DNA of 64,000 nucleotides from an uncultured Christensenellaceae bacterium (GTDB taxonomy: Bacteria > Bacillota > Clostridia > Christensenellales > UBA3700). The stretch covers positions 96,228 to 160,227 of the forward strand of contig CAJUOU010000002.1 in the NCBI GenBank assembly GCA_910588545.1, in the 5' to 3' direction. Both the position numbers and the translations under genes were made by a program. Shown here piece after piece: positions 4,026 through 42,872 of the stretch. How positions within the stretch are numbered: position 1 is the stretch's first letter; each line of letters starts with the position of its first letter. Under the pieces are notes generated by a model, which worked only from the letters and a program-made list of their open reading frames with translations, did no database searches and was not told the origin of the DNA.

Positions 4026-4144
4026 AATTTTCTCCTATTCTATTGAAATTTTTATATTTTTTTATTTTTAATACCGATTTTCAAAAGATTATTTGCTTTT
4101 AGCAATAATATGTTATTAAATAAAATTATAAATTTAGCCTTTTA

Positions 4145-7727: not shown

Positions 7728-9929
7728 TTAATAGAACAACTCGATTCCTATGATTTTGTCAATCACATTCCTTACGATTTCCGCATCTGCAGTGGTTATT
7801 TCGCCTTTGTTTATTACCATACTCGCTAGCTTTTTCTCCACACTTAAACTTTCGTATAATGCGTTGTCACTTGCTATTTCTCTCAAGTAGGACACATCGC
7901 TTGCACTTATCCTTCCATCGCCGTTCACATCCCCCAATACGGATAGGTATATCGTTTCGCCGTTTGTCTGTATACACCATCCTGTTCCTATTGCCATCTC
8001 TTTGCCGTTATCTGCAATAGCACTGTTTATGCCACTATCTACTGCTCCGTTTTGATAAATTGTTTTGCCTTTACTATCCGATAGTTGTAAATTGTTTTTA
8101 TCAATACCCAAAGGTGCTAGGTTATTTACAAATTCGTTTACCGAAGTGTTTGGTTTTATATTTCCCAATACATATCTTTCCAACTCGCTGTCATTGTAAC
8201 CGTGTAATTTGTCATTTTCAGTATATGTTTTCCTATAGCCGTTATCCAAATAAACAAAATCATAAATTGATTTTTCTTTCAAATCAAAAATTACTTCCTC
8301 ATTTTTCAAAACAGCAACTTTTTTGCTGTCTTTGGTAAAAAAGTATTTTGACGGATTTTGATTTCCGTTGCCGTAATAAGTATACCCCAATGTGAAAGTT
8401 TTAAATAAATTATAGTTATCATTCAAATCAACTTGAATATGAGCATCTTTACCTTCGCTTGTAAGCAGACCTACTACTTCAACTTTAATATCCTGCGGCA
8501 AACACAAATCTGCATATTCTCCGTTGGATGAGTTGTCTTTTATAACAGTTGCTCCGCTGATTTGCAGCTTGCCTGCGCGAATATTTAGTCCGCCAGCATT
8601 TTCAGTTGCATGATTACCTGTTATAGTAGTATTTTTAATTGCTATGATATCTGCGATTGTAGAAATACCTGCGCCGTATTTTGCAGTGTTCCCCGTGATT
8701 TCGCAATTACTAATGCTCATTAGGGTCATATTATCATCGTTATAAATTCCACCGCCGGATTCTGCACTGCTATTATTTTGAAACACACAATTATTTAACG
8801 TACAAGACGAATTTTGATAATTAAAAATTGCACCTCCATAATTGTTTGCAACATTGCCTACAAAATTGCAGTTTGTAATCGTTGTAATTCCGTTGGAGAA
8901 AATGCCTGCACCGCTCATCTCACTTTCATTTTTATAAAAAACACAATCGTTTATTGTAACTTTTGTATTTTCATGAAATACGCTCAATGCTCCGCCATTT
9001 AATTTTGATGTGTTATTGCTGAAAACAACATTGTTCATTTCAAAATTTATACTGCCTGCAGCCATAATAGCACCTGCTTCAGTAGAAGACTTGTTTCCTA
9101 TTATAATTGAATTGCTAATAGATGTATTGTTCGTACAATGAAATGCTGCACCGCTAGTTTTTGTAGCACAGTTATTCATAAATAAACCGCCATTCACGAT
9201 AAGTTCTCCTGCAGCACAAATCGCACCGCCGGCTGGAGCATAAATATTATCAATTATCATACCACCATTAAATGTCAATTTTGCATTAGATTGAATATAA
9301 ATACCACCGCCTGTATCCATACATGCTCCACCTGTGATTTTACCAAAAGGCAAAGCTCTTAAAGCATTTATTTGAGTTGCTAATGGTTTGTCTTTATTTT
9401 CCTCGTAAGTATTAAACATTAACTCACTGTCGTATTTACTATCTATGATTGTCAAAGTACCTCCATTTAAAACTGTAAAAATAGACCCATAGCTCATTTT
9501 TGTAGTTTGTTTTTTATCAAGCGTATGTCCGTTTAAATCAAATATAATTGTTGCGCCATGTGGCACTGTTATAGAGCCACTGCCATTATAAAAGCCCTTA
9601 CCTACACCAAAAAAATAAGTATCTTCATGTGCAACCCAATCACTGTCAAGCAATACTTTTATTTCTTTGTTATTACCATCAAAGCTTTTTTGTATGGCAC
9701 CACTCCATAAAGCAGCTTTTTCATCTGTTGTACCTGTTAAAATAACATCAGGTGTATAGCCAACATCGGTAGCTTTTTCACTATCTACTATCTCTCCACT
9801 GCTTTGTGTTTTTAAAGTTTCGGTTTGTAAAGCAATGTTTGTAGATGCAAACAAACATCCTACAACTAAAAGACAAGAAATTACTAATACAAAAAATATT
9901 ATTCCAACTTTTTTAATAATCTTTGCCAT
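7728..9929 (-). CDS. secreted surface protein with polymorphic-membrane-protein (Pmp) type beta-helix repeats and a C-terminal dockerin-like module
   Basis: N-terminal signal peptide. Many GGAI/GGAL/SGAG plus FxxN-type repeats (NNYGGAIFNY, LNGGALSVF, ESGGGIYN). C-terminus GDVNGDGRISASDVSYLREIAS matches the dockerin Ca-binding repeat; the second repeat is degenerate. GGAGG SD upstream of the ATG. Confidence 0.8.
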   Translation of the reverse strand: MAKIIKKVGIIFFVLVISCLLVVGCLFASTNIALQTETLKTQSSGEIVDSEKATDVGYTPDVILTGTTDEKAALWSGAIQKSFDGNNKEIKVLLDSDWVAHEDTYFFGVGKGFYNGSGSITVPHGATIIFDLNGHTLDKKQTTKMSYGSIFTVLNGGTLTIIDSKYDSELMFNTYEENKDKPLATQINALRALPFGKITGGACMDTGGGIYIQSNAKLTFNGGMIIDNIYAPAGGAICAAGELIVNGGLFMNNCATKTSGAAFHCTNNTSISNSIIIGNKSSTEAGAIMAAGSINFEMNNVVFSNNTSKLNGGALSVFHENTKVTINDCVFYKNESEMSGAGIFSNGITTITNCNFVGNVANNYGGAIFNYQNSSCTLNNCVFQNNSSAESGGGIYNDDNMTLMSISNCEITGNTAKYGAGISTIADIIAIKNTTITGNHATENAGGLNIRAGKLQISGATVIKDNSSNGEYADLCLPQDIKVEVVGLLTSEGKDAHIQVDLNDNYNLFKTFTLGYTYYGNGNQNPSKYFFTKDSKKVAVLKNEEVIFDLKEKSIYDFVYLDNGYRKTYTENDKLHGYNDSELERYVLGNIKPNTSVNEFVNNLAPLGIDKNNLQLSDSKGKTIYQNGAVDSGINSAIADNGKEMAIGTGWCIQTNGETIYLSVLGDVNGDGRISASDVSYLREIASDNALYESLSVEKKLASMVINKGEITTADAEIVRNVIDKIIGIELFY

Positions 9930-9951
9930 AATAAAACCTCCGTTTTTATCT

Positions 9952-9978
9952 TACATAGAATAAGTATATCTATGTACA
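9952..9978. repeat. left inverted repeat of inverton 1
   Basis: TACATAGAATAAGTATATCTATGTACA. Its reverse complement matches 10100-10126 at 26/27 positions. Contains an internal dyad ACATAGA-N9-TCTATGT. Confidence 0.9.
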
Positions 9979-10057
9979 AAATCGCGATTTTTCGGAAAAG
10001 TTTTTTAAAGTTTTTGTAGCTTTTTTGTAAAGCTATTACAAAATGTTTAATTAAATG

Positions 10058-10087
10058 TTGACAAAAGTTTACTTTTGACCCTATAAT
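10058..10087 (+). promoter_or_regulatory. sigma-A type promoter inside inverton 1
   Basis: TTGACA (10058-10063), 18-nt spacer, TATAAT (10082-10087). Confidence 0.8.
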
Positions 10088-10099
10088 ATACATATAATA

Positions 10100-10126
10100 T
10101 GTACATAGATATACTTATTCCATGTA
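10100..10126. repeat. right inverted repeat of inverton 1
   Basis: TGTACATAGATATACTTATTCCATGTA, the partner of 9952-9978. Confidence 0.9.
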
Positions 10127-10140
10127 CCCAAACTTTACAT

Positions 10141-10233
10141 TAATGGCAAATTTTCAACCCCAATAGTCCCGATTTTTGATAGGATTATTGCAGTGAACGA
10201 TACTTTTTGCCAACTTTAAACTTTACACAAAAA
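10141..10233 (+). other. conserved non-coding module, copy 1 (paralog of 14231-14319)
   Basis: The 40-nt core CCGATTTTTGATAGGATTATTGCAGTGAACGATACTTTTT matches copy 2 at 35/40 positions, at the same distance (~42 nt) from the right IR. Also shares the AAACTTTACA(C/T)AAAAA motif. Confidence 0.7.
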
Positions 10234-10236
10234 GTA

Positions 10237-10274
10237 ACACCCCAAAACACAATGTTTCGGGGTGTATTTTATTT
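10237..10274 (+). terminator. intrinsic terminator ending the OFF-state transcript of inverton 1
   Basis: ACACCCCAAA / TTT(C)GGGGTGT stem followed by ATTTTATTT on the plus strand. Confidence 0.6.
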
Positions 10275-10430
10275 GTATGGCGTATTTAAAATTGTATAAT
10301 TTTAAGAAATTTTACGGCTAAAAAATGTCTATATTAATTTATATTACTACTATCCTTTTCAATTTTTATTTATATATTCTATTTGATAAACAAGTGCAAT
10401 TTTTAATTAAACATATAATTTATAGCAAGC

Positions 10431-10460
10431 AAAAAAGCCATTCTATTGAATGGCTTTTTT
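10431..10460 (-). terminator. bidirectional intrinsic terminator after the 1154-aa adhesin gene
   Basis: GCCATTC/GAATGGC stem flanked by A6 and T6 runs. Confidence 0.7.
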
Positions 10461-10523
10461 AATTAGTTATGCTTTTTACCTTTTTGTTTTTTAGTGTTTG
10501 TTTGCGTTTCGTTTTGGTTGTTT

Positions 10524-13500
10524 TTATTTACGCCTTTTCTTTTTATTCAATTTGCTATTAGGCTTGCTATCTTCATCAATTTTATCAGTGTCCACACCAT
10601 CAGCCGGCGTTATTTGATTTTGTAGCTTTTTAACCTTTTTTGCTTCGCTTTCTTTTAATGCGTAAAATAATATTCTTTCTTGCGGAGCTTCCAACACACT
10701 CAAGTTCAAAACATCATTTTCCTTTATTACAAATGTCCAATCTTTGTAACCTACCTTGTAGTTATTTACTATCGTTCCTCTTACATTTACTACTTCCTTT
10801 GGTTTTATATCCTCGGTATTGGTATTTGTCGCTCCGTTGTTTTCGCTTGCTGCTTGTTGGTTGTTTGCGGCATACTGTGCATAAGGTATTGCTTGTTGTG
10901 GAGTATTTTTATTTTTCTTTACTACTATCAATATTATTATCAACAACAATATAAATATTATCATAAAGATAAATATTGCTATTAATATCCACCACATATA
11001 CGGAGGCATATTTTTTAGTGTTTCTATTACACTATTCATTCCGCTATCCGTATTACCATTACTTCCACCATTCGGTTTGCCGTCAGTTCCGTTGTTATCG
11101 TCCTCGCCGTCGCCACCACTTGGGTTAGGGTTTACCTCTGTTTTAAAGCTGTATGTTTCCGTCTCGTCAACTAGCTCTCCGTTGTATTTTAAAAACACAC
11201 TGCCCTTATACTCATTTTTTACTTTCAAGGAGATTTGGTAATTTGTATCATACTTTAGCGTTGCAGTTGGCAATATTACATTGCCTATTATCTGCCCGTC
11301 TTTTACTTGGTATATTTCGTAATCAAAATACTTTTCTATCTCACTTTTTTCGTCAGATAATAGCGTTGGTCGTTTGTTTCCCGTTCCGTTTTGCCATCCG
11401 CTTATCTCAAACTCCAGCGTTTGTATATCCAAAGTTATTGTATATGTCGTGTTATCTCTATCCTCCCACACTACATTGTCTACTTCTCCGCCATTTGCTG
11501 TGTTTACTCCGTTTTTAAACGCTATTTGTATGCTATACTTTCCTGCTTTTGTAAACTTGTAGTTTTCGTCTACTACATTGCCGTCTACTGTTATTTCAAA
11601 GTAGCTCTTCCAATTTGTCGGCATATTGGCTACAGCACTTAACCCAAAGCCTTCTGCATCAAATATGTTTACTTGGTCTGCTTTTGGCTTTCTTATCTTT
11701 AAGCTTTCTATCTCATAATCAAAGGTATCTTCTCCTACTATCATAAAGTCGTCCAAACCACTTTGCAATCCTACCAACACTTTATATCTTCCTACATTTG
11801 TCGGTGCTCCGCTCAGTGGCGTACCGTCTGCTGTAGTGTAGCTTATTACCAAGTTACTTGCTGTCAATCCTCCGCCTGCTACATTTAGCTCTACAGCTTG
11901 TGACAAACCATTGTATGTAAACTTATTATTCTTTAAGCTTACCTCTACTTTATTTATTACCGACCCTGTTTGGAATACTTCCGATACTGAGTTTTCCTCA
12001 TTTCCATCTACTACAAATATACAGTTAGTGTTGTTAAATCCTATTGTATTTGTCGTAAATATTGCTTGTATATAATATGACTTTATTTCACTTATATCAT
12101 TTTCTGCAAATATTTGCTCTAATGTTACTTCATCAGTCAAATCACTCTTTCTAAAATACTTGTATTCTATTGCATTAGCTAAGTTTTCCGCTACTTGTAA
12201 TCTTGGTATTGGTAGCGTTATATCCCCTATTGTCACATTCTTTTTTGTCCATGATACCGCTACTTTCTTTTTGGTTATCTTCCAATTATGCTTTAGTTGT
12301 GGTATATTTGCTAGTTCCGCACTCGTATATGTTTTGTAGTTAGGGTCACTGCCTGTAAAATCAATTACACTTGCGATATAATCTCCTACTGCGGACTTAG
12401 CATTATTGTCATACACTGCTGTTAAAAAGGACGGTAGTCCAGAGGCTATCTCTACCTTTTGGTTTTGACCATTATATTCAAACTCGCTTTGACTCCACGT
12501 GACTTTGCTAAAATCTATTTCTGCCTTGTTTATGGTTATTTTTATCCATCGGACTGTATCGCTTTCCAAATGGTCGCTATCTGTGGTATCCGCAGTTCCT
12601 CTAAATCTTGGTTTTCTAAAATCTATTACTTCCTGTTTTTCGGTTTCCGTCCAACCGTATTTTAAAGCATCTTGCTCTACCAATGCAATTATTTTATTTG
12701 TCCAACTCTCTTTTATCTCTACCTTTACCCAATACTCTCCTGCGTTTTCGAATGCTTTAGTACTGTCGGGATAAGCAAGTTGAATAAACTCGTTATCTGA
12801 CTCATACAAATTTTTGTCATACCAAGCAGTATTGTTGTTTGTCTTTACAATTTCACTTAATGTTTGTGCTGTTGCATTATATGTTGTCTCCAAATCTTGG
12901 GGATTTTGCACTCCGTTTTCCAAGCCTCTTAGTATTTCGCTTAAATTTACATGTATTGCAGGGCGGACACCTCGCTCATTTGTTATACCCACATTAATCC
13001 ATCTACTAGCATCTGTACAAGTGGAATCAATATCGGAAAAAGCATATCCCCAACTATAATTATTATGATGAGCAGAACGTGTCCATGCTGTAGTAATCCC
13101 TTTTGATGCTATTTGCTCAGGCGACAATTTCCATCCAGATTCTACCAAAGTTCCATTGGAATAGTTTCCGCCAATTTCATAGACACTAGGTATCCAAATA
13201 TAGTCTTTACCCCAGTCGCTATATTTAATACCATCTACTGCATAATCGACTTCATACCCCCCGCCTGTATTAAATTGAGGTTTCCAATCAGGATAGTTGC
13301 TGTTTAGCGCATCATTTCCATAATCATAGGTACTAAACCCAAGTCTCATTGATTGTAGTTGTTGGTATTTAATATACTGCGGCTGAACTAAATATTTTGT
13401 AGCAAAATCGCCTTCGATAAATTGAGACATTTCGTTACTTGACAAAAGAGTATTTCTCAAAGTGCTGCTACTGTACATATTATTACCTTTCGATGCAGAA

Positions 13501-13988
13501 CCGTTTGTATAGAACTTGGACAATTTATACGAATCTGCTAAATATAAAGTTACAACAACATCTTCTTTGGAATAAAAATTTATATCGGTTAAAGTTACAG
13601 ATGTAACTATCCATTGATATCCACCGAGAGTAACAACTAAACCTGTTTCAGAACCAACTTGCGTATTTATAGTAGTAGCATTAACTAAATAAGTTGTTGT
13701 ATCCATATCAGGATTAATTTTATATACATGTTTTTTTACATAATCAGTCGGATTTTCTTTATTAAATAATTTTTCTTTCAAATTTAAAATTGCAAAATTA
13801 TTAAAAGACTTATTAACATTATCATATAATTCAGCACCATTCGCAACTTGAATAGCAGAGCTTGGATTTGATAAAGCCAATGCCTGTTTTGGAAAAATAA
13901 AAATACTTGCAATAAGACTACTAAATAGTACTATCATAAATGTTAACATTACTATAAATAGATACGATTTTTTTATGGTTTTCTTCAT
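10524..13988 (-). CDS. large type-I membrane surface protein/adhesin with DUF6273-like N-terminal domain, MBG-type Ig-like repeats, one C-terminal TM helix and a ~150-aa cytoplasmic tail
   Basis: Signal peptide. GVRPAIHVNL motif (DUF6273-like). MBG-like repeats (FEYNGQNQKVEI...VGDYIASV; FTYNGLSQAVEL...VGRYKVLV). G/N/D-rich linker. TM helix MWWILIAIFIFMIIFILLLIIILIVV followed by KKNKN and a basic tail ending KKKRRK. Confidence 0.75.
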   Translation of the reverse strand: MKKTIKKSYLFIVMLTFMIVLFSSLIASIFIFPKQALALSNPSSAIQVANGAELYDNVNKSFNNFAILNLKEKLFNKENPTDYVKKHVYKINPDMDTTTYLVNATTINTQVGSETGLVVTLGGYQWIVTSVTLTDINFYSKEDVVVTLYLADSYKLSKFYTNGSASKGNNMYSSSTLRNTLLSSNEMSQFIEGDFATKYLVQPQYIKYQQLQSMRLGFSTYDYGNDALNSNYPDWKPQFNTGGGYEVDYAVDGIKYSDWGKDYIWIPSVYEIGGNYSNGTLVESGWKLSPEQIASKGITTAWTRSAHHNNYSWGYAFSDIDSTCTDASRWINVGITNERGVRPAIHVNLSEILRGLENGVQNPQDLETTYNATAQTLSEIVKTNNNTAWYDKNLYESDNEFIQLAYPDSTKAFENAGEYWVKVEIKESWTNKIIALVEQDALKYGWTETEKQEVIDFRKPRFRGTADTTDSDHLESDTVRWIKITINKAEIDFSKVTWSQSEFEYNGQNQKVEIASGLPSFLTAVYDNNAKSAVGDYIASVIDFTGSDPNYKTYTSAELANIPQLKHNWKITKKKVAVSWTKKNVTIGDITLPIPRLQVAENLANAIEYKYFRKSDLTDEVTLEQIFAENDISEIKSYYIQAIFTTNTIGFNNTNCIFVVDGNEENSVSEVFQTGSVINKVEVSLKNNKFTYNGLSQAVELNVAGGGLTASNLVISYTTADGTPLSGAPTNVGRYKVLVGLQSGLDDFMIVGEDTFDYEIESLKIRKPKADQVNIFDAEGFGLSAVANMPTNWKSYFEITVDGNVVDENYKFTKAGKYSIQIAFKNGVNTANGGEVDNVVWEDRDNTTYTITLDIQTLEFEISGWQNGTGNKRPTLLSDEKSEIEKYFDYEIYQVKDGQIIGNVILPTATLKYDTNYQISLKVKNEYKGSVFLKYNGELVDETETYSFKTEVNPNPSGGDGEDDNNGTDGKPNGGSNGNTDSGMNSVIETLKNMPPYMWWILIAIFIFMIIFILLLIIILIVVKKNKNTPQQAIPYAQYAANNQQAASENNGATNTNTEDIKPKEVVNVRGTIVNNYKVGYKDWTFVIKENDVLNLSVLEAPQERILFYALKESEAKKVKKLQNQITPADGVDTDKIDEDSKPNSKLNKKKRRK

Positions 13989-14033
13989 TTTTATTTTCTC
14001 CTAATAGTACACTTTATATCAAATGAAACATTT

Positions 14034-14061
14034 GTACATAGAATATATATAATCTATGTAC
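14034..14061. repeat. left inverted repeat of inverton 2
   Basis: GTACATAGAATATATATAATCTATGTAC. Its reverse complement is identical (28/28) to 14185-14212. Internal dyad ACATAGA-N10-TCTATGT. Confidence 0.95.
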
Positions 14062-14142
14062 ATTTAGGAGCATTTTTCAAGCAATAAAATTAAAGTTTTG
14101 GTATAAATTAGTTAAAGTTCTTACAAAATGATTAGTTTAATA

Positions 14143-14172
14143 TTGACATTACTTTACTTTTAATCTTATAAT
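14143..14172 (+). promoter_or_regulatory. sigma-A type promoter inside inverton 2
   Basis: TTGACA (14143-14148), 18-nt spacer, TATAAT (14167-14172). Confidence 0.8.
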
Positions 14173-14184
14173 ATAACTGAAAAA

Positions 14185-14212
14185 GTACATAGATTATATA
14201 TATTCTATGTAC
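14185..14212. repeat. right inverted repeat of inverton 2
   Basis: GTACATAGATTATATATATTCTATGTAC, the perfect partner of 14034-14061. Confidence 0.95.
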
Positions 14213-14230
14213 TTTTTTTATCCTTTTATT

Positions 14231-14319
14231 TTATGGTAAATTGCAAGTTAATGCCGATTTTTGACGGCATTATTGCAGTGAACGACAATTTTTATATACT
14301 TCAAACTTTACATAAAAAA
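14231..14319 (+). other. conserved non-coding module, copy 2 (paralog of 10141-10233)
   Basis: Core CCGATTTTTGACGGCATTATTGCAGTGAACGACAATTTTT. Hairpin TAATGCCG-AUUUUUGA-CGGCATTA. Followed by CAAACTTTACATAAAAAA. Confidence 0.7.
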
Positions 14320-14320
14320 T

Positions 14321-14358
14321 AGCAACCCGAAAATTATATAAATAAGGTGCTGTTTTTT
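14321..14358 (+). terminator. possible weak terminator ending the OFF-state transcript of inverton 2
   Basis: AGCA(A)CC / GGTGCT short stem with a large loop, followed by GTTTTTT. Confidence 0.35.
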
Positions 14359-14464
14359 ATATTCGAAATTTTCGTTCAATGCAATTAGACATATTTAGGC
14401 TTAAAATTAAACCGAAAACTGCTTTTTAAGCAAAATATTTATACTACAGACGGCTTGGTTAAAT

Positions 14465-14650
14465 AAAAAAATAAGGCATATACCTTAAAGATATATGCCA
14501 AAAACGCAAATAGCGTGTAGTACCGCTCAACCGAAAGAAAACTATTTGAAAACCTCGTTCTTCGAGGTGGGTTAGCTACCTGATACCGCTGTCTTCCCCT
14601 GCCATAACCTAAAAGGTCGAGGGCGTGACATTGAGTACCACAACTCGCAG
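14465..14650 (-). ncRNA. candidate ~185-nt structured small RNA, class not identified (6S-like size and architecture)
   Basis: GC-rich island in an AT-rich intergenic region. TATAAT -10 box on the minus strand (14662-14657). Strong intrinsic terminator (GGCATATA/TATATGCC, 14475-14499, plus U-run). 5' segment GUGGUACUCAA can pair with 3' segment UUGAGCGGUACUAC. Internal hairpin ACCUCG-AAGAA-CGAGGU. Only a 19-codon ORF without an SD. Confidence 0.55.
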
Positions 14651-14808
14651 TCCCTTATTATAAATGTGGTTACAAAATGCAATTTCCTTTCAAATCTTGC
14701 AGTTATCCTACAACAATAGTATAACACATTTGAATGGTCATTACAATACCCTTTTTAAATTTTAATGTAAAAAATTTCCTAAATTAATGTTTAATAAACT
14801 TTACATTT

Positions 14809-14838
14809 AAAAAAGACCTAAAGTTTTACTTTAAGCCT
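14809..14838 (-). terminator. intrinsic terminator after the membrane protein operon
   Basis: 10-bp stem on the minus strand (AGGCUUAAAG/CUUUAGGUCU, with G-U pairs) followed by a U-run. Confidence 0.6.
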
Positions 14839-14853
14839 TTTAATTTATTTATA

Positions 14854-15789
14854 TCAATATACTTCTTTTACGGAATGCTTGCTGTCGATAACAGTTTCGG
14901 CATCTATATAGTATTTTCTTTCGTTCCTACGATAGTAAATTACCAACCCGATGCTTTGATAGAAAATGTTTAAAAAGCTTGTTGCCATAATAAAGCCGAT
15001 ACCAAAAGTAATAAGCCCGAATAACATAATAAACATATAAGACACAAAATTGATTGCAGTAAACAAGCCCCAATTTTTTATTATCAAATCTTTATTAGTC
15101 AATATTGCTTTTTGCAAGCTTTTAAAAATACCAAGTTCCTCATTTATATAAGTTGGTAACCACATTGCAAACACTGAACGTTTTAGTGCAATCAACACCA
15201 TAAAAATCGTTAGGCACAGCGTTAAAGCAAACACAACCGACAACTTACCAACACCCCAAAATGTCAAATAAATCAAACCACACAACAATAGCATGTATGG
15301 GATGTAAATCAATGTATCTACAAAGCTGTAAGCAACTGATTTTTTCAAATGTGCAATTAGGTTTGATGTAAAACCAAATTTGCTATTGCTGTTCATAAAA
15401 TTATTTAACACATCTGCAAGCGGATAATGACCGATTGTGATTAAAAACTTTCCTAAAAAAGTAAATGCAAACAATGCACAAACAGCACCGACTACATTGT
15501 TCCTGTTAGTTGCAAACACTTCCGAAATTTTTGCAAAGTCTTGTCCCAAAATACCAAATGCAGAATTTTGAACAGCTAAATCGCCACCGAACATAGAGCG
15601 GAATGCATCCATACAATGTTCAAAGAAATGCATATTTTGTACGCCTTGTATAATAGGTCGCATAATATAGTACATTGAACTTATAGAAACCGCAGCAAAT
15701 ATAAGCATAACAATAGTTAAATACAGCAAAAATTTATAAAACAAGGAAAACCTCGAAACGGTTATCGAAAAAGAATGTTTTGCTAACAT
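14854..15789 (-). CDS. polytopic integral membrane protein, function unknown
   Basis: Multiple hydrophobic helices and no recognisable motif. Abuts the upstream membrane protein gene with a 1-nt gap. Confidence 0.55.
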   Translation of the reverse strand: MLAKHSFSITVSRFSLFYKFLLYLTIVMLIFAAVSISSMYYIMRPIIQGVQNMHFFEHCMDAFRSMFGGDLAVQNSAFGILGQDFAKISEVFATNRNNVVGAVCALFAFTFLGKFLITIGHYPLADVLNNFMNSNSKFGFTSNLIAHLKKSVAYSFVDTLIYIPYMLLLCGLIYLTFWGVGKLSVVFALTLCLTIFMVLIALKRSVFAMWLPTYINEELGIFKSLQKAILTNKDLIIKNWGLFTAINFVSYMFIMLFGLITFGIGFIMATSFLNIFYQSIGLVIYYRRNERKYYIDAETVIDSKHSVKEVY

Positions 15790-16672: not shown

Positions 16673-17320
16673 TTATTGTTTTTTAAATACGTCAATCAAA
16701 TCGACAGGCTTTTGAACACACAAAATAGTCCCGATTTTTGACATATTTTTCACATTTCCAAAGCCGTAAGCCACTGCCAAGCAGTCGACACCCACTTGCT
16801 TTGCTGCCATTGCATCGTATATGGAATCCCCAATCATAAGGCAGTCATTTTTGTTGGCGCCGGATATTTGAACTGCATACTCCAAAATATCTTTTTTGTC
16901 AATCCTGCCCTCGCTTTCTACAGTACCAAACACTCCGTCAAAGCAATCCCTCACGCCAAACTCTTTAAGCATTTCGCTTGCAATATCTTCCCTTTTGCTG
17001 GTCGCAATAAACATTTTATATCCAAAGCTTTTTATTGCGTTTAAAATATTGGGCATATCGTCAAATAGCTTACACATATTTTGTCCGCCTTGATTTATAT
17101 AGTATTCCCTATACAACTCGCGTGCAAACGGCTCCTTCTCTGCCCCAAACATATCGGTAAAAGTAACTTTCAACGGAGGTCCGATATATTGTTTCCTATC
17201 CTCTGGCGGTACATTTACCCCAAAATGTTCAAAAACTTTGCCAAAAGCAAAACTACAGCCCTCAAAACTATCCACTATTGTGCCATCAAAATCCCAAAAC
17301 AAATATTTATATTCACGCAT
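16673..17320 (-). CDS. HAD-superfamily hydrolase (phosphoglycolate phosphatase/PpaX-like)
   Basis: Motif I FDFDGTIVDS and motif IV GDSIYD. Overlaps the valS stop by 8 nt. Confidence 0.8.
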   Translation of the reverse strand: MREYKYLFWDFDGTIVDSFEGCSFAFGKVFEHFGVNVPPEDRKQYIGPPLKVTFTDMFGAEKEPFARELYREYYINQGGQNMCKLFDDMPNILNAIKSFGYKMFIATSKREDIASEMLKEFGVRDCFDGVFGTVESEGRIDKKDILEYAVQISGANKNDCLMIGDSIYDAMAAKQVGVDCLAVAYGFGNVKNMSKIGTILCVQKPVDLIDVFKKQ

Positions 17321-26810: not shown

Positions 26811-26828
26811 TTAGTAAATTAAATTTTG

Positions 26829-27017
26829 ATGCTAATAGAGGAGCAATCAGCAATAGTATGTCCGCCAAATGGTATGCAATTACCGACAGGCAGAAAGGGT
26901 ATGATTGCCGAGGTCTTAATCATATTGCAGTGGTTAAGGTTGGGTATAAGGCTAAATCCTTATAACTGTCATCTTAGATGGAGTACTATTATGCTAGCGG
27001 TAAAAATGCTTTTTATT
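26829..27017 (+). promoter_or_regulatory. lysine riboswitch (L-box) aptamer
   Basis: L-box hallmarks AUAGAGGAGC...AGUA, GAAAGGG...UUGCCGAGG and AACUGUCA...UGGAGUACUAU. Lies upstream of lysine/DAP pathway genes. Confidence 0.85.
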
Positions 27018-27044: not shown

Positions 27045-27173
27045 AATATTCAAACATAAATTTCAAGCAAATTATATGTATAAGCAGTTTTACAAGCATG
27101 TTACAATCGGATAAATCAAAAAATTATTTATCCGTTATAAATTAGATTTTTATTTTTATTCATGGAGGCATAT

Positions 27174-31681: not shown

Positions 31682-31862
31682 ATATACATGTATAAATAGT
31701 TAAGCTTGCATATTTGCGTAAACAACAGTATTTTAATTAAAAATGAATTATTCTTATTATTTATCACTGTAATATGCTACTATATGATATGTTTTGAATA
31801 AAACAAATATGCTATTTTGATTATTTACATATTATTAAGAAAAATTAATCAAAGGAGTACTT

Positions 31863-32756
31863 ATGTCTTATTTTATAACCACAGATGCTACTTGTGATTT
31901 CCCACAGGAACTATTAAATAATTTTACAAACTTTAAAATCATTCCAATGGCATACACCATTGACGATATAGAATATGGTATTGATAAACAACTTTCGGGT
32001 AAGGAATTTTACGATAAGGTAAGAAACGGTGCCATGCCGACTACATCCCTTATAACTACTTACACAGCAACCGAGTTTTTCAGGCCTATCTTAGAGGACG
32101 GCAACGATATACTTCATATTTGTTTTTCTTCAAGCTTAAGCAGTACTTACCAAAGCGTTACTTTAGCTGTTGAAGAATTAAAAAAGGAATTTCCCAATAG
32201 GAAAATATTTATGCTAGACTCTAAGGCTGCATGCTCGGGCGAAGCTTTGCTTGTTTACTATTCACTTAAAGCACGCGATAATGGTATGGATATCGAAAGC
32301 AACTATAACGAAACAGTTGAAAGACGTGACCACATTTGCCATTACTTTACACCAAATGATTTATATCATTTAATGCGTGGCGGTAGAGTAAGTAAAACCG
32401 CTGCTGTTGCAGGTACTTTACTTCAAATTAAACCTATGCTTTATGCAAATGTTGACGGAAAACTTTCTACAATAGGTAAAGTTAAAGGCAGAAAAAAAGC
32501 TCTTTTGGGACTTGTTGAATATATGCAAGACAAAATGATAGCAGATAAAAACGAAATTATTTTTATTGCTCACGCTGACTGCTTGGAAGACGCGGAATTT
32601 GTTAAGGAAAAAATTATCGAAAAAACAGGGCTTACCAATATAATAATCGATTATATAGGTCCGGTTATCGGCTCACACACGGGACAAGGCACGGTAGCAT
32701 TATTCTTTGTCGGAAAAGACAAAATCGAAGCTACGGACGATTTATTAAAACAATAA
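31863..32756 (+). CDS. DegV-family fatty-acid-binding protein (paralog 1)
   Basis: DegV pattern ITTDATCDFP...PTTSLIT...HICFSSSLSSTYQS...GRVSKTAA. Confidence 0.88.
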   Translation: MSYFITTDATCDFPQELLNNFTNFKIIPMAYTIDDIEYGIDKQLSGKEFYDKVRNGAMPTTSLITTYTATEFFRPILEDGNDILHICFSSSLSSTYQSVTLAVEELKKEFPNRKIFMLDSKAACSGEALLVYYSLKARDNGMDIESNYNETVERRDHICHYFTPNDLYHLMRGGRVSKTAAVAGTLLQIKPMLYANVDGKLSTIGKVKGRKKALLGLVEYMQDKMIADKNEIIFIAHADCLEDAEFVKEKIIEKTGLTNIIIDYIGPVIGSHTGQGTVALFFVGKDKIEATDDLLKQ

Positions 32757-32778
32757 AAACTGACACTACGGAGGGATT

Positions 32779-33669
32779 ATGTCTTATTACATTACAACCG
32801 ACGCGACTTGCGATTTTCCACAAGAATGGTCGTATTTTGAAAATTTTAAAATTATACCAATGACATACACAATAGGAGATACCGAGTATGGTATTGATAA
32901 AAATCTTTCAGGTAAGGAATTTTTTGATGCGATAAGAAATGGTGCCATGCCAACAACTTCGCTTATTACAAGTTTTTTTGCCGAAGAATTTTTTAGACCG
33001 ATATTAAAAGCAGGAAACGATATATTGCATATCTGTTTTTCTTCGAGCTTAAGTAGCACTTATCAAAATGTACTTACCGCAGTTGAAGAATTGAAGCAAG
33101 AATTCCCCCAACGTAAATTTTACATGCTTGACTCAAAATGTGCAACAACAGGCGAAGGTTTGCTTGCCTATTATGCATTAAAAGCCCGTGACAACGGTAT
33201 GAGCATTGAAGATAATTACAATGAAACTCTTATTCGTCGCGATAAAATTTGTGTTTATTTTACTCCTGATGACCTTTTCCACTTGATGAGAGGTGGCAGA
33301 GTAAGCAAAACCGCTGCTATAGCTGGCTCATTGCTTAAAATCAAGCCTATGCTTTATGTAAATAAAGACGGCAAGCTTTCAACAATAGATAAAATAAAAG
33401 GTAGAAAAAAAGCTATTTTGGAGCTAATCGACCATTTGCAAGACAAAATTATTCTTGAAGAAAATGATGTAATAATTATTCTTCACGCAGACTGCCCTGA
33501 CGATGCAGAGTTTTTAAAGGAAAAAATAATCGAAAAAACCGGTATTACAAATATACTTACCAATTATGTAGGACCTATCATTGGCTCACACACAGGCGCA
33601 GGCACAATAGCTTTAGGCTTTATTGGAAAAGACAAAATAGAGCCAAACGACGAATTGTTAGAAAAATAA
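32779..33669 (+). CDS. DegV-family fatty-acid-binding protein (paralog 2, tandem duplicate)
   Basis: Collinear with 31863-32756 and highly similar along the whole length (roughly two-thirds identical by eye). Confidence 0.88.
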   Translation: MSYYITTDATCDFPQEWSYFENFKIIPMTYTIGDTEYGIDKNLSGKEFFDAIRNGAMPTTSLITSFFAEEFFRPILKAGNDILHICFSSSLSSTYQNVLTAVEELKQEFPQRKFYMLDSKCATTGEGLLAYYALKARDNGMSIEDNYNETLIRRDKICVYFTPDDLFHLMRGGRVSKTAAIAGSLLKIKPMLYVNKDGKLSTIDKIKGRKKAILELIDHLQDKIILEENDVIIILHADCPDDAEFLKEKIIEKTGITNILTNYVGPIIGSHTGAGTIALGFIGKDKIEPNDELLEK

Positions 33670-41520: not shown

Positions 41521-41806
41521 CAAGCAACATATACAATTTATTATATTTTTTGAGCATATCAGCATATTATCATACATTGATAGGATAGATATCAACTTAT
41601 GTCAATTTATTCATAAATGGTTGTATTATCATATAATCAAAAGTTAATTTATCAATATATGACAATATGATTATTCATTAATAATTTAATAATAGGCATA
41701 TCTACATGTATAAATTTATTACAAAAATCGCTACTATTTCATATTTTCATATCTACATATTGTGATATGATGATATATCTATTCTTTTAAAATGGCTTTA
41801 CACAAC

Positions 41807-42682: not shown

Positions 42683-42872
42683 ACAATTATTTTAACACAT
42701 TTAAGTATATTTTGCTATACTTTTTTTGTAAAAAACAAAGATAATTTATTATAGAAAATATTTTTATATTTGATTAAGGATAACCTAAAATACAAATTAG
42801 TACCGATTTTTAAAAGTTTTTTACAAAACTTTATGTATTAAAAAGAGTGCTTAAGTCAGCACCCTTAGTTAT

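Follow-up and report, generated by a model that had tools for sequence, protein, structure and literature searches.

What becomes of the output of an invertible promoter when it points away from the gene it serves? The question is raised by the first of two such promoters in a 64,000-nucleotide (nt) stretch of DNA from an uncultured Christensenellaceae bacterium (contig CAJUOU010000002.1), the whole of which we call the window. Here the promoter was captured facing not its surface-protein gene but a conserved non-coding module that ends at a terminator, and a first-pass annotation of this DNA had suggested a possible two-output switch whose second product, an RNA made only when the gene is OFF, might be an antagonistic small RNA. 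The best-supported description of this region (10127-10319) is the fixed outer (upstream) arm of a multi-copy invertible-promoter cassette. With belief and doubt in about equal parts, we favor the explanation that this non-inverting arm combines an insulating terminator with a spacing-constrained DNA scaffold.

Two switches in the window and their orientation

The window contains two homologous invertible-promoter switches arranged in tandem on the minus-strand gene axis. The inverted repeats (IRs) of switch 1 bracket 121 bp containing the promoter, and an IR pair with an internal promoter is what marks an inverton. As captured, this promoter is directed to the module and away from the gene at 7728-9929, so the captured state is OFF. 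The IRs of switch 2 flank a 115-bp segment, which is placed likewise upstream of a gene for a protein of 1154 amino acids (aa) at 10524-13988 on the minus strand; an exact-protein look-up of this product returned no record. The elements of the two switches are listed here.

7728-9929, minus strand: gene served by switch 1, encoding a 733-aa secreted protein with a PMP repeat and a dockerin-like C terminus
9952-9978: left repeat (IR-L) of switch 1, 27 nt, 96% complementary to the right repeat
10058-10087, plus strand: invertible promoter of switch 1, TTGACA-18-TATAAT, 12/12 to the sigma-70 consensus
10100-10126: right repeat (IR-R) of switch 1, 27 nt
10127-10236: fixed outer module of switch 1, about 106-110 bp, with near-invariant blocks CCCAAACTTTACATT; TAGTCCCGATTTTTGATAGGATTATTGCAGTGAA; ACTTTTTGCC.ACTTTAAACTTTACACAAAAAG
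10143-10166, plus strand: mini open reading frame (ORF) MANFQPQ*, not a gene
10163-10179, minus strand: anchor motif TCAAAAATCGGGACTAT, invariant in four module variants, its TCAAAAATCGG core exactly 41 nt from the IR
10184-10213, minus strand: weak, gene-sense promoter-like site TTGGCA-18-(TG)AATAAT, with the extended -10 TGCAATAAT in three of the four variants
10237-10265: intrinsic terminator hairpin, bidirectional in form
10302-10319: distal motif TTAAGAAAnnnTTnGGCT, the outer edge of cassette homology
14034-14065: IR-L of switch 2, 32 nt, 97%
14143-14172, plus strand: invertible promoter of switch 2, 12/12 to consensus, OFF in the window
14181-14212: IR-R of switch 2, 32 nt, 97%
14213-14320: type-2 module copy of switch 2, homologous to the switch 1 module
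14321-14358: type-2 hairpin (AGCAACC...GGTGCT, 18-nt loop) followed by a T-run, weak and not called by a simple scan
14384-14401: distal motif of switch 2, ATTAGACATATTTAGGCT

Both switches do invert, and each orientation is observed in natural populations. We observed the switch 2 promoter facing its gene (ON) in three related loci (L064, L068, and L083) and averted from it (OFF) in the window. For switch 1, an identical protein (P0019) is found on two contigs of opposite orientation, L104 being OFF and L105 ON; the orthologues L102 and L103 are OFF as well. Among type-1-like assemblies, 15 of 16 have the promoter directed toward the module (OFF); there is therefore an orientation bias, and hence some asymmetric determinant. 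Each IR arm is a near-palindrome by itself (TACATAGA, 9-10 nt, TCTATGTA) and, going by its letters, would have the shape of a complete recombinase core site. We also considered that the IR pair might be a miniature inverted-repeat transposable element, and this was ruled out, one locus having been found in both orientations.

Two irregular assemblies were seen among the related loci. In L078 (3190-3330), the cassette has no IR-L, and its invertible interior directly adjoins coding sequence for a protein of 1104 aa or more; this is either a locked-OFF rearrangement or a repeat-induced misassembly. The start of the L083 contig (1-60) repeats, in reverse complement, what follows IR-R on its right, a fold-back assembly artefact at the inverted repeat.

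Distribution and conservation of the arm

The homology on which the first-pass annotation relied, between the modules beside switch 1 and switch 2, was borne out (10164-10247 against 14249-14332, 80% identity), as were the coordinates of the other features described there, and it extends further, to the motif at 10302-10319. The 17-mer ATTATTGCAGTGAACGA is found exactly at just two window sites, one per module copy; at up to three mismatches there are 4 matches in the window against 0.44 expected, and 0 of 100 shuffles reach four. A search with nhmmer found just the two modules and no further copy in the window. Among 185,579 species-representative genomes, an exact search for ATTATTGCAGTGAACGA returned two true relatives, both metagenome-assembled genomes (MAGs): an Eubacteriales MAG (L005), whose contig begins within IR-R, and a Clostridia MAG (L064). 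The other 64 matches equal the number expected by chance and show no further likeness to the module. A looser two-block pattern matched 24 metagenome contigs, 19 of them true and eight from one assembly; many of these end inside the module, a break that is expected because the module is a multi-copy repeat. Finally, all homologues of the 733-aa protein (31-95% identity) with an available upstream region carry the same upstream cassette. In total there are about 30 related switches at ~20 different outer flanks in public gut metagenomes and MAGs, and at least about 10 cassette loci per lineage, the per-genome census being a lower bound. The conservation beside homologous invertons elsewhere on which the first-pass annotation had staked its claim is thus present, in 2 MAGs, 19 metagenome contigs, and the loci of adhesin homologues; it is far beyond chance and a feature of the family.

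Read in gene sense, the cassette runs from the distal motif through the terminator, the 106-bp module, an IR, the invertible promoter, and the second IR to the Shine-Dalgarno sequence (SD) and the surface-protein gene. The direction of the regulated gene is constant in all loci and the module-side neighbors are co-directional in most, so that the inverton is usually separated by the arm from the 3' end of a gene upstream. Across nine aligned full-length type-1 loci, the mean pairwise identities of the segments were as follows.

IRs: 0.96-0.99
Module (IR-R to terminator): 0.91, minimum 0.86
Invertible interior: 0.80, minimum 0.62, with two allelic forms
Terminator stem-loop: 0.71
Spacer after the terminator: 0.48
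Distal motif TTAAGAAAnnnTTnGGCT: 0.66

Since the module exceeds the interior (0.91 against 0.80), constraint is strongest, the IRs aside, in DNA beyond the segment that inverts. Homology stops beyond the distal motif.

At the other end of the cassette, the 5' untranslated region (UTR), the SD, and the first ~20 codons (ATGGCAAAGATTATTAAAA..., MAKIIKK...) are common to paralogous adhesins that are otherwise 31-49% identical (window 9930-9951 and 9870-9929, and likewise L092-L102). These form a conserved cassette "head" with variable cargo.

Some orthologous sites differ in what they carry. L092 and L094 (2830-2950) have different interior alleles, with a TAAAAT-type and a TATAAT-type promoter, respectively, and L091 and L098, which share the ypeB-DUF1846 site, differ in adhesin cargo (756 vs 1052 aa). 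These differences suggest exchange between cassettes. A solo partial module without an inverton (TCCCGATTTTTG through the terminator to the distal motif) is found at L087 826-1010, directly after a plus-strand 240-aa acyltransferase-like ORF and convergent with a minus-strand ORF. A mobile-element origin of the module was rejected: there was no match in phage, plasmid, or viral collections, and the copies are tied to invertons, with this one partial solo copy.

The terminator and its strand asymmetry

The first-pass annotation had placed an intrinsic terminator for the OFF-directed promoter at 10237-10274. The plus-strand hairpin and its U-run are present there, and the promoter does read through IR-R into a conserved module ending at them; the terminator signature, however, belongs to the minus strand. 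The hairpin is followed by the T-run ATTTTATTT at 10266-10274 on the plus strand and by TTACTTTTTGTG at 10236-10225 on the minus strand. A simple terminator scan calls it on the minus strand alone, in the window and in L098, and the plus strand has an A·C mismatch in the window. The gene-sense TTACTTTTTGTG after the stem is invariant, and in 19 copies inspected visually the plus strand has a T-rich run of the ATTTTTATTTT type.

We examined covariation in a set of 17-19 distinct copies. Pairing is kept in 90.9% of cells when the stem is read as minus-strand RNA, where slid controls do not exceed 54%, and in 83.1% when it is read on the plus strand. The stem has 7 cells changed on both sides, with double-sided changes at three pairs, and 0 of 500 shuffles reach either the pairing or the covariation score. 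G·U pairs number 20 on the minus strand vs 3 on the plus strand, or 22 vs 4 in a second count (binomial p=5e-4), and in 16 of 19 copies the minus-strand form of the hairpin has the greater stability (Wilcoxon p=0.001), p-values that are optimistic in that the copies are paralogues and orthologues and the G·U counts not fully independent. The direction of the G·U asymmetry is nevertheless consistent, and the stem positions involved vary from locus to locus. Folding energies computed with the flanks average -16.8 kcal/mol on the minus strand vs -13.5 kcal/mol on the plus strand. The plus-strand hairpin of switch 1 in the window reaches about -16 to -18 kcal/mol; among the other copies, five are weaker than -7.6 kcal/mol, with values of -5 to -7 kcal/mol in several.

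These data point to a hairpin that evolved mainly as a gene-sense (minus-strand) RNA structure while being bidirectional in form. Halting the flipped-away promoter would be a secondary role, unequal among copies: adequate at switch 1, and weak in five copies and at switch 2. Bidirectional intrinsic terminators have a GC-rich hairpin between an A-tract and a T-tract and can stop RNA polymerase from both directions. Unlike ordinary ones, the terminator described here is a component of a repeated cassette and is asymmetric in its G·U content.

In the mechanism we propose, the gene-sense terminator would halt read-through from co-directional upstream genes, and the adhesin would therefore be silent once its promoter has flipped away. 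Because there is a T-run on the other side too, the flipped-away promoter would also be stopped, after about 180 nt in most copies, which would spare the upstream gene antisense transcription. In the OFF orientation the predicted transcript runs from the promoter at 10058-10087 to the T-run at 10266-10274, about 180 nt; given the order of promoter, IR-R, module, and terminator, such a plus-strand RNA is a reasonable prediction. We expect that it would be made, but as a by-product.

Two further hairpins in the window resemble parts of this arrangement. A perfectly symmetric, A6/T6-flanked hairpin at 10431-10460 (AAAAAAGCCATTC...GAATGGCTTTTTT) terminates the 1154-aa gene, and therefore two serial terminators shield switch 1. 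At 42790-42870, read on the minus strand, the terminator hairpin GGGTGCTGACTTAAGCACTC followed by TTTTTAATACATAAAGTTTTGTAAAAAACTTTTAAAAATCGGTACTAAT resembles a compressed arm without an inverton.

The module as a proposed DNA scaffold, and the competing readings

The remaining part of the arm, the module itself, is where a scaffold and an RNA lead to different expectations. Four diverged variants (canonical, type 2, L099, and L091) keep TTTTTGTGYAAAGTTT, an interval of 36-37 nt, TCAAAAATCGG, an interval of exactly 41 nt, and the IR. The sequence between these anchors is about half identical by eye, and the spacing is almost indel-free. The variants keep spacing and not sequence, and therefore DNA architecture fits better than a base-pairing RNA. 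The 106 bp from the terminator to IR-R could then be a protein-binding scaffold, with anchors at fixed distances from the crossover site. The part of such a scaffold would be comparable to that of the IHF, Lrp, and H-NS sites at fimS: to give shape to the tight synapse of a 121-bp invertible segment and/or to bias the switch to OFF. A recombinase accessory site and a directionality element had been listed by the first-pass annotation beside its antagonistic RNA, and of its proposals these two fit the data better.

The core motif recurs beyond the modules. Allowing up to 3 mismatches, the pattern TCAAAAATCGG(K)(R)(Y)TAT has 8 matches in the window where 2.3 would be expected, a number attained by 0 of 100 shuffles; three near-matches fall in intergenic DNA, at 4068-4084 (minus strand), 41721-41737 (plus strand), and 42797-42813 (minus strand). 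This suggests that motifs of the TCAAAAATCGG type may be sites of a genome-wide DNA-binding protein, and we infer that the TCAAAAATCGGKRYTAT motif and the module are putative protein-binding DNA. A partial IHF-like WATCAA lies beside TCAAAAATCGG and a CodY-like core lies in the distal motif; both likenesses, picked out by eye, are speculative. Nothing convincing was seen for sigma-D, ECF (extracytoplasmic function), sigma-54, Fur, cre, PurBox, or Spo0A boxes, likewise by eye. A-tracts stand at similar distances from the IR, at -50 to -46 in 5 of 5 aligned sequences and at about -30 to -23 in 4 of 5. In related loci, motifs of the TCAAAAATCGG type were also seen outside modules (L079 7974, L085 12415, L098 7010, and L101 5672), mostly in intergenic DNA.

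The closest parallel is the fimS switch of Escherichia coli (FimB/FimE), where a short invertible promoter likewise drives an adhesin with a strong OFF bias and with essential cis elements at or outside the IRs. There, one IHF site (IHF-1) is adjacent to IRL and the other lies within fimS, recombinase sites flank each repeat, and the H-NS "trap" includes adjacent chromosomal DNA (PMC9993118). To treat conservation outside an invertible segment as unprecedented, the first-pass annotation having recognized no such arrangement in described invertons, is thus too strong (PMC9993118). The arm has the look of a fixed terminator joined to a docking region, which insulates the switch and probably steers it. 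In both systems the relation of a terminator to the neighboring transcript changes with orientation (PMC9993118). The fim terminator, in contrast, is Rho-dependent and inside the element, whereas the one described here is intrinsic, bidirectional-looking, and outside it; there is no sequence similarity, and these are Firmicutes-type genomes. Also unlike fimS, which is a single locus with adjacent recombinases, this cassette is present at a minimum of about 10 loci per lineage, with no recombinase close by.

Several results, in addition to the dependence among copies mentioned above, weigh against a scaffold with an insulating terminator. Neither a binding protein nor a recombinase came to light in the window or the fetched loci; for the recombinase, phmmer searches that used XerD and Hin as queries on 326 ORFs were negative, as were three Pfam batches, and the cognate enzyme is presumably encoded elsewhere in the genome. 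The helical phasing of the A-tracts is not significant with a tract-preserving control (p = 0.05-0.36), and an earlier value of p <=0.002 came from a biased naive shuffle and is not relied on. The type-2 hairpin is weak on both strands. The distal motif at 10302-10319 has no role assigned in this explanation and is left unexplained by it. Finally, the module corresponds almost exactly to the stretch transcribed in the OFF state, fed by a perfect-consensus promoter, which leaves room for a role of the RNA.

Might the module instead encode the second output of the switch, an OFF-only plus-strand RNA of ~180 nt that acts in trans as a riboregulator, or, pooled over loci, as an "OFF-census" RNA? 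A 12/12 consensus promoter transcribes directly into the module, a plus-strand hairpin and T-run follow in most copies, the near-invariant blocks of 15-33 nt are possible seeds, and OFF is the majority state in the type-1-like assemblies. These features speak for the antagonistic small RNA that the first-pass annotation listed first, and the comparative data nevertheless go against it. The terminator is optimized for the other strand, and its plus-strand form falls to -5 to -7 kcal/mol in several copies. Conservation runs past the terminator into the distal motif, which would be absent from the OFF RNA, and the diverged variants retain spacing rather than sequence. The body of the module has no conserved secondary structure: beyond the IR hairpin and the terminator, alifold gave -11 kcal/mol with a covariation term of -0.2, and single-fold z-scores are good only because of these two hairpins. 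A candidate mid-module hairpin (TAGTCC...GGATTA) has one compensatory change in switch 2 and is broken in L064-type copies, L099, and L091. With so weak a consensus fold and almost no covariation, a structured RNA was rejected. No Rfam family matched over the module, either at gathering thresholds or at E up to 5 (9900-14900), and duplexes with adhesin 5' regions were no better than shuffles (RNAduplex on 44 window start regions; 74/300 and 180/300). The module has no conserved ORF either: elsewhere the ATG at 10143 is replaced by AAG, ACG, AAA, or GAG, and an SD is lacking, as the first-pass annotation had said of the MANFQPQ* frame, and a small-protein gene is ruled out on these grounds. A perfect 18/18 complementarity to the mRNA of a HAD gene (16724-16741) would favor a target, and it falls in coding sequence and was found post hoc. 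We conclude that the ~180-nt OFF-state RNA is plausible, that the comparative data as they stand do not require it to have a function, and that a trans-acting role for it is improbable.

The HAD match deserves a separate description. The segment AATAGTCCCGATTTTTGA has 18/18 identity to the module and lies on the plus strand at 16724-16741, inside the 3' end of the HAD-hydrolase ORF at 16673-17320 (minus strand), and the OFF-state RNA would therefore be perfectly complementary to that mRNA over 18 nt. The match is also found in the L068 and L083 orthologues, with one mismatch in L064. It may be chance in coding sequence, it may reflect the origin of the motif, or it may be a target.

A fixed second promoter or operator is a further reading. 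Here the gene-sense extended -10 (TGCAATAAT, with TAGGCA/TTGGCA at -35) and a TCAAAAATCGG operator at the start site would provide a non-invertible input that runs through the inverton to the adhesin, and convergent interference from the opposing consensus promoter, at a distance of about 85 bp, would silence this input in the OFF state. In gene sense, a scan picked up TTGGCA-18-AATAAT in the window and TAGGCA-18-AATAAT in L098, each with the TG of an extended -10; the promoter-like site overlaps the best-conserved core of the module; TGCAATAAT is kept in the canonical, type-2, and L099 variants; the site is just downstream of the gene-sense terminator, the usual spot for a next promoter; and the operator-like near-matches described above recur in intergenic DNA. 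The match to consensus is, however, 9-10/12, the -35 is poor or absent in type 2, L091 has TTTAATAAA, and at other sites the motif has no consistent orientation toward nearby genes. Moreover, a promoter leaves about 110 bp of near-invariance and the exact 41-bp distance to the IR unexplained, and we regard this reading as doubtful.

It is quite unlikely that the flank is a neutral by-product, conserved through recent cassette duplication or gene conversion, with the terminator alone functional. The sharing of the 5' UTR and signal-peptide codons among otherwise divergent paralogues and the apparent swap of two interior alleles between orthologous loci (L092 vs L094), which indicates cassette recombination, would both be expected from such a process. 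Conservation is instead block-wise, the terminator stem-loop having compensatory changes and the spacer beside it being the least conserved segment; the module is more conserved than the promoter segment; and L091, L099, and type 2 keep their anchors and a near indel-free spacing, which is unexpected for neutral AT-rich DNA. A cis-regulatory leader, i.e., a riboswitch or attenuator for a plus-strand gene beyond the terminator, is superficially suggested by the layout of promoter, ~100-nt conserved leader, and terminator, and has next to no chance of being right, being effectively refuted by gene order: no sense-strand gene follows in ~20 loci, where the neighbors are convergent 3' ends or, in a few, a divergent gene, and there is neither an Rfam match (E up to 5) nor a conserved alternative structure.

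For the favored scaffold and terminator, other multi-locus or two-output switches provide partial comparisons. In the Salmonella hin/H-segment, orientation yields a second regulatory output, fljB plus the fljA repressor. Both of these outputs are proteins of the ON orientation, the enzyme is a serine invertase with a Fis-bound enhancer, and there is no RNA module on the OFF side. In Clostridioides difficile cwpV and flgB, the promoter is fixed; the element that inverts lies downstream of it, within the 5' UTR, and its orientation determines whether transcription terminates. In contrast, the element described here carries a consensus promoter and its terminator is fixed outside; the C. difficile IRs differ and there is no shared flank. 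What is alike in the RecV switches of this member of the Firmicutes (cwpV, flgB, and cmrRST) is the combination of several invertons, a distant tyrosine recombinase, and termination in the switching logic (PMC7446863 and PMC8844915). The multi-locus invertible promoters of Bacteroides, capsular polysaccharide and surface-protein invertons served by a global invertase, are similar in that one genome has many loci with shared IRs and promoter type, in controlling surface structures, and in an invertase that may be distant (surveys such as PMC11892184). The conservation described there is that of the IRs, the interior promoter, and the downstream UpxY/UpxZ genes; phylum and sequences differ. A conserved external arm with a terminator is not reported in the available portions of two inverton surveys, which analyze IRs and interiors (PMC11892184 and PMC11602134).

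Such surveys score IRs and interior; in this cassette, constraint peaks outside the part that flips. As the family is uncultured and unannotated, its cassettes are at present invisible in genome annotation. The arm offers a handle on how OFF is kept tight and how a whole switch family is biased to OFF in gut Firmicutes, and the terminator-insulated, recombinase-addressable promoter cassette is a natural design for synthetic biology. If the OFF-state RNA were functional, it would represent a new regulatory logic for phase variation. Two bolder ideas strike us as long shots: that a pooled ~180-nt "how many OFF" RNA from ~10 paralogous switches feeds back on the recombinase or on ON loci, or that the arm is a new directionality module holding an inverton family OFF.

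The window contains three further features of note. Between the switch 2 arm and the next gene, 14516-14708 on the minus strand matches 6S/SsrS RNA (Rfam RF00013) over the full length, at a score of 40 bits (E=1e-5) that falls just short of the gathering score of 46.4; it has a -10-like box and a terminator of its own. A lysine riboswitch (RF00168, 88 bits) is present at 26828-26996 on the plus strand, upstream of a plus-strand operon starting at 27162. At 31840-33285, tandem paralogous ORFs (31863-32756 and 32779-33669; 297 and 296 aa) share 68-79% nucleotide identity at an offset of 913-916 nt.

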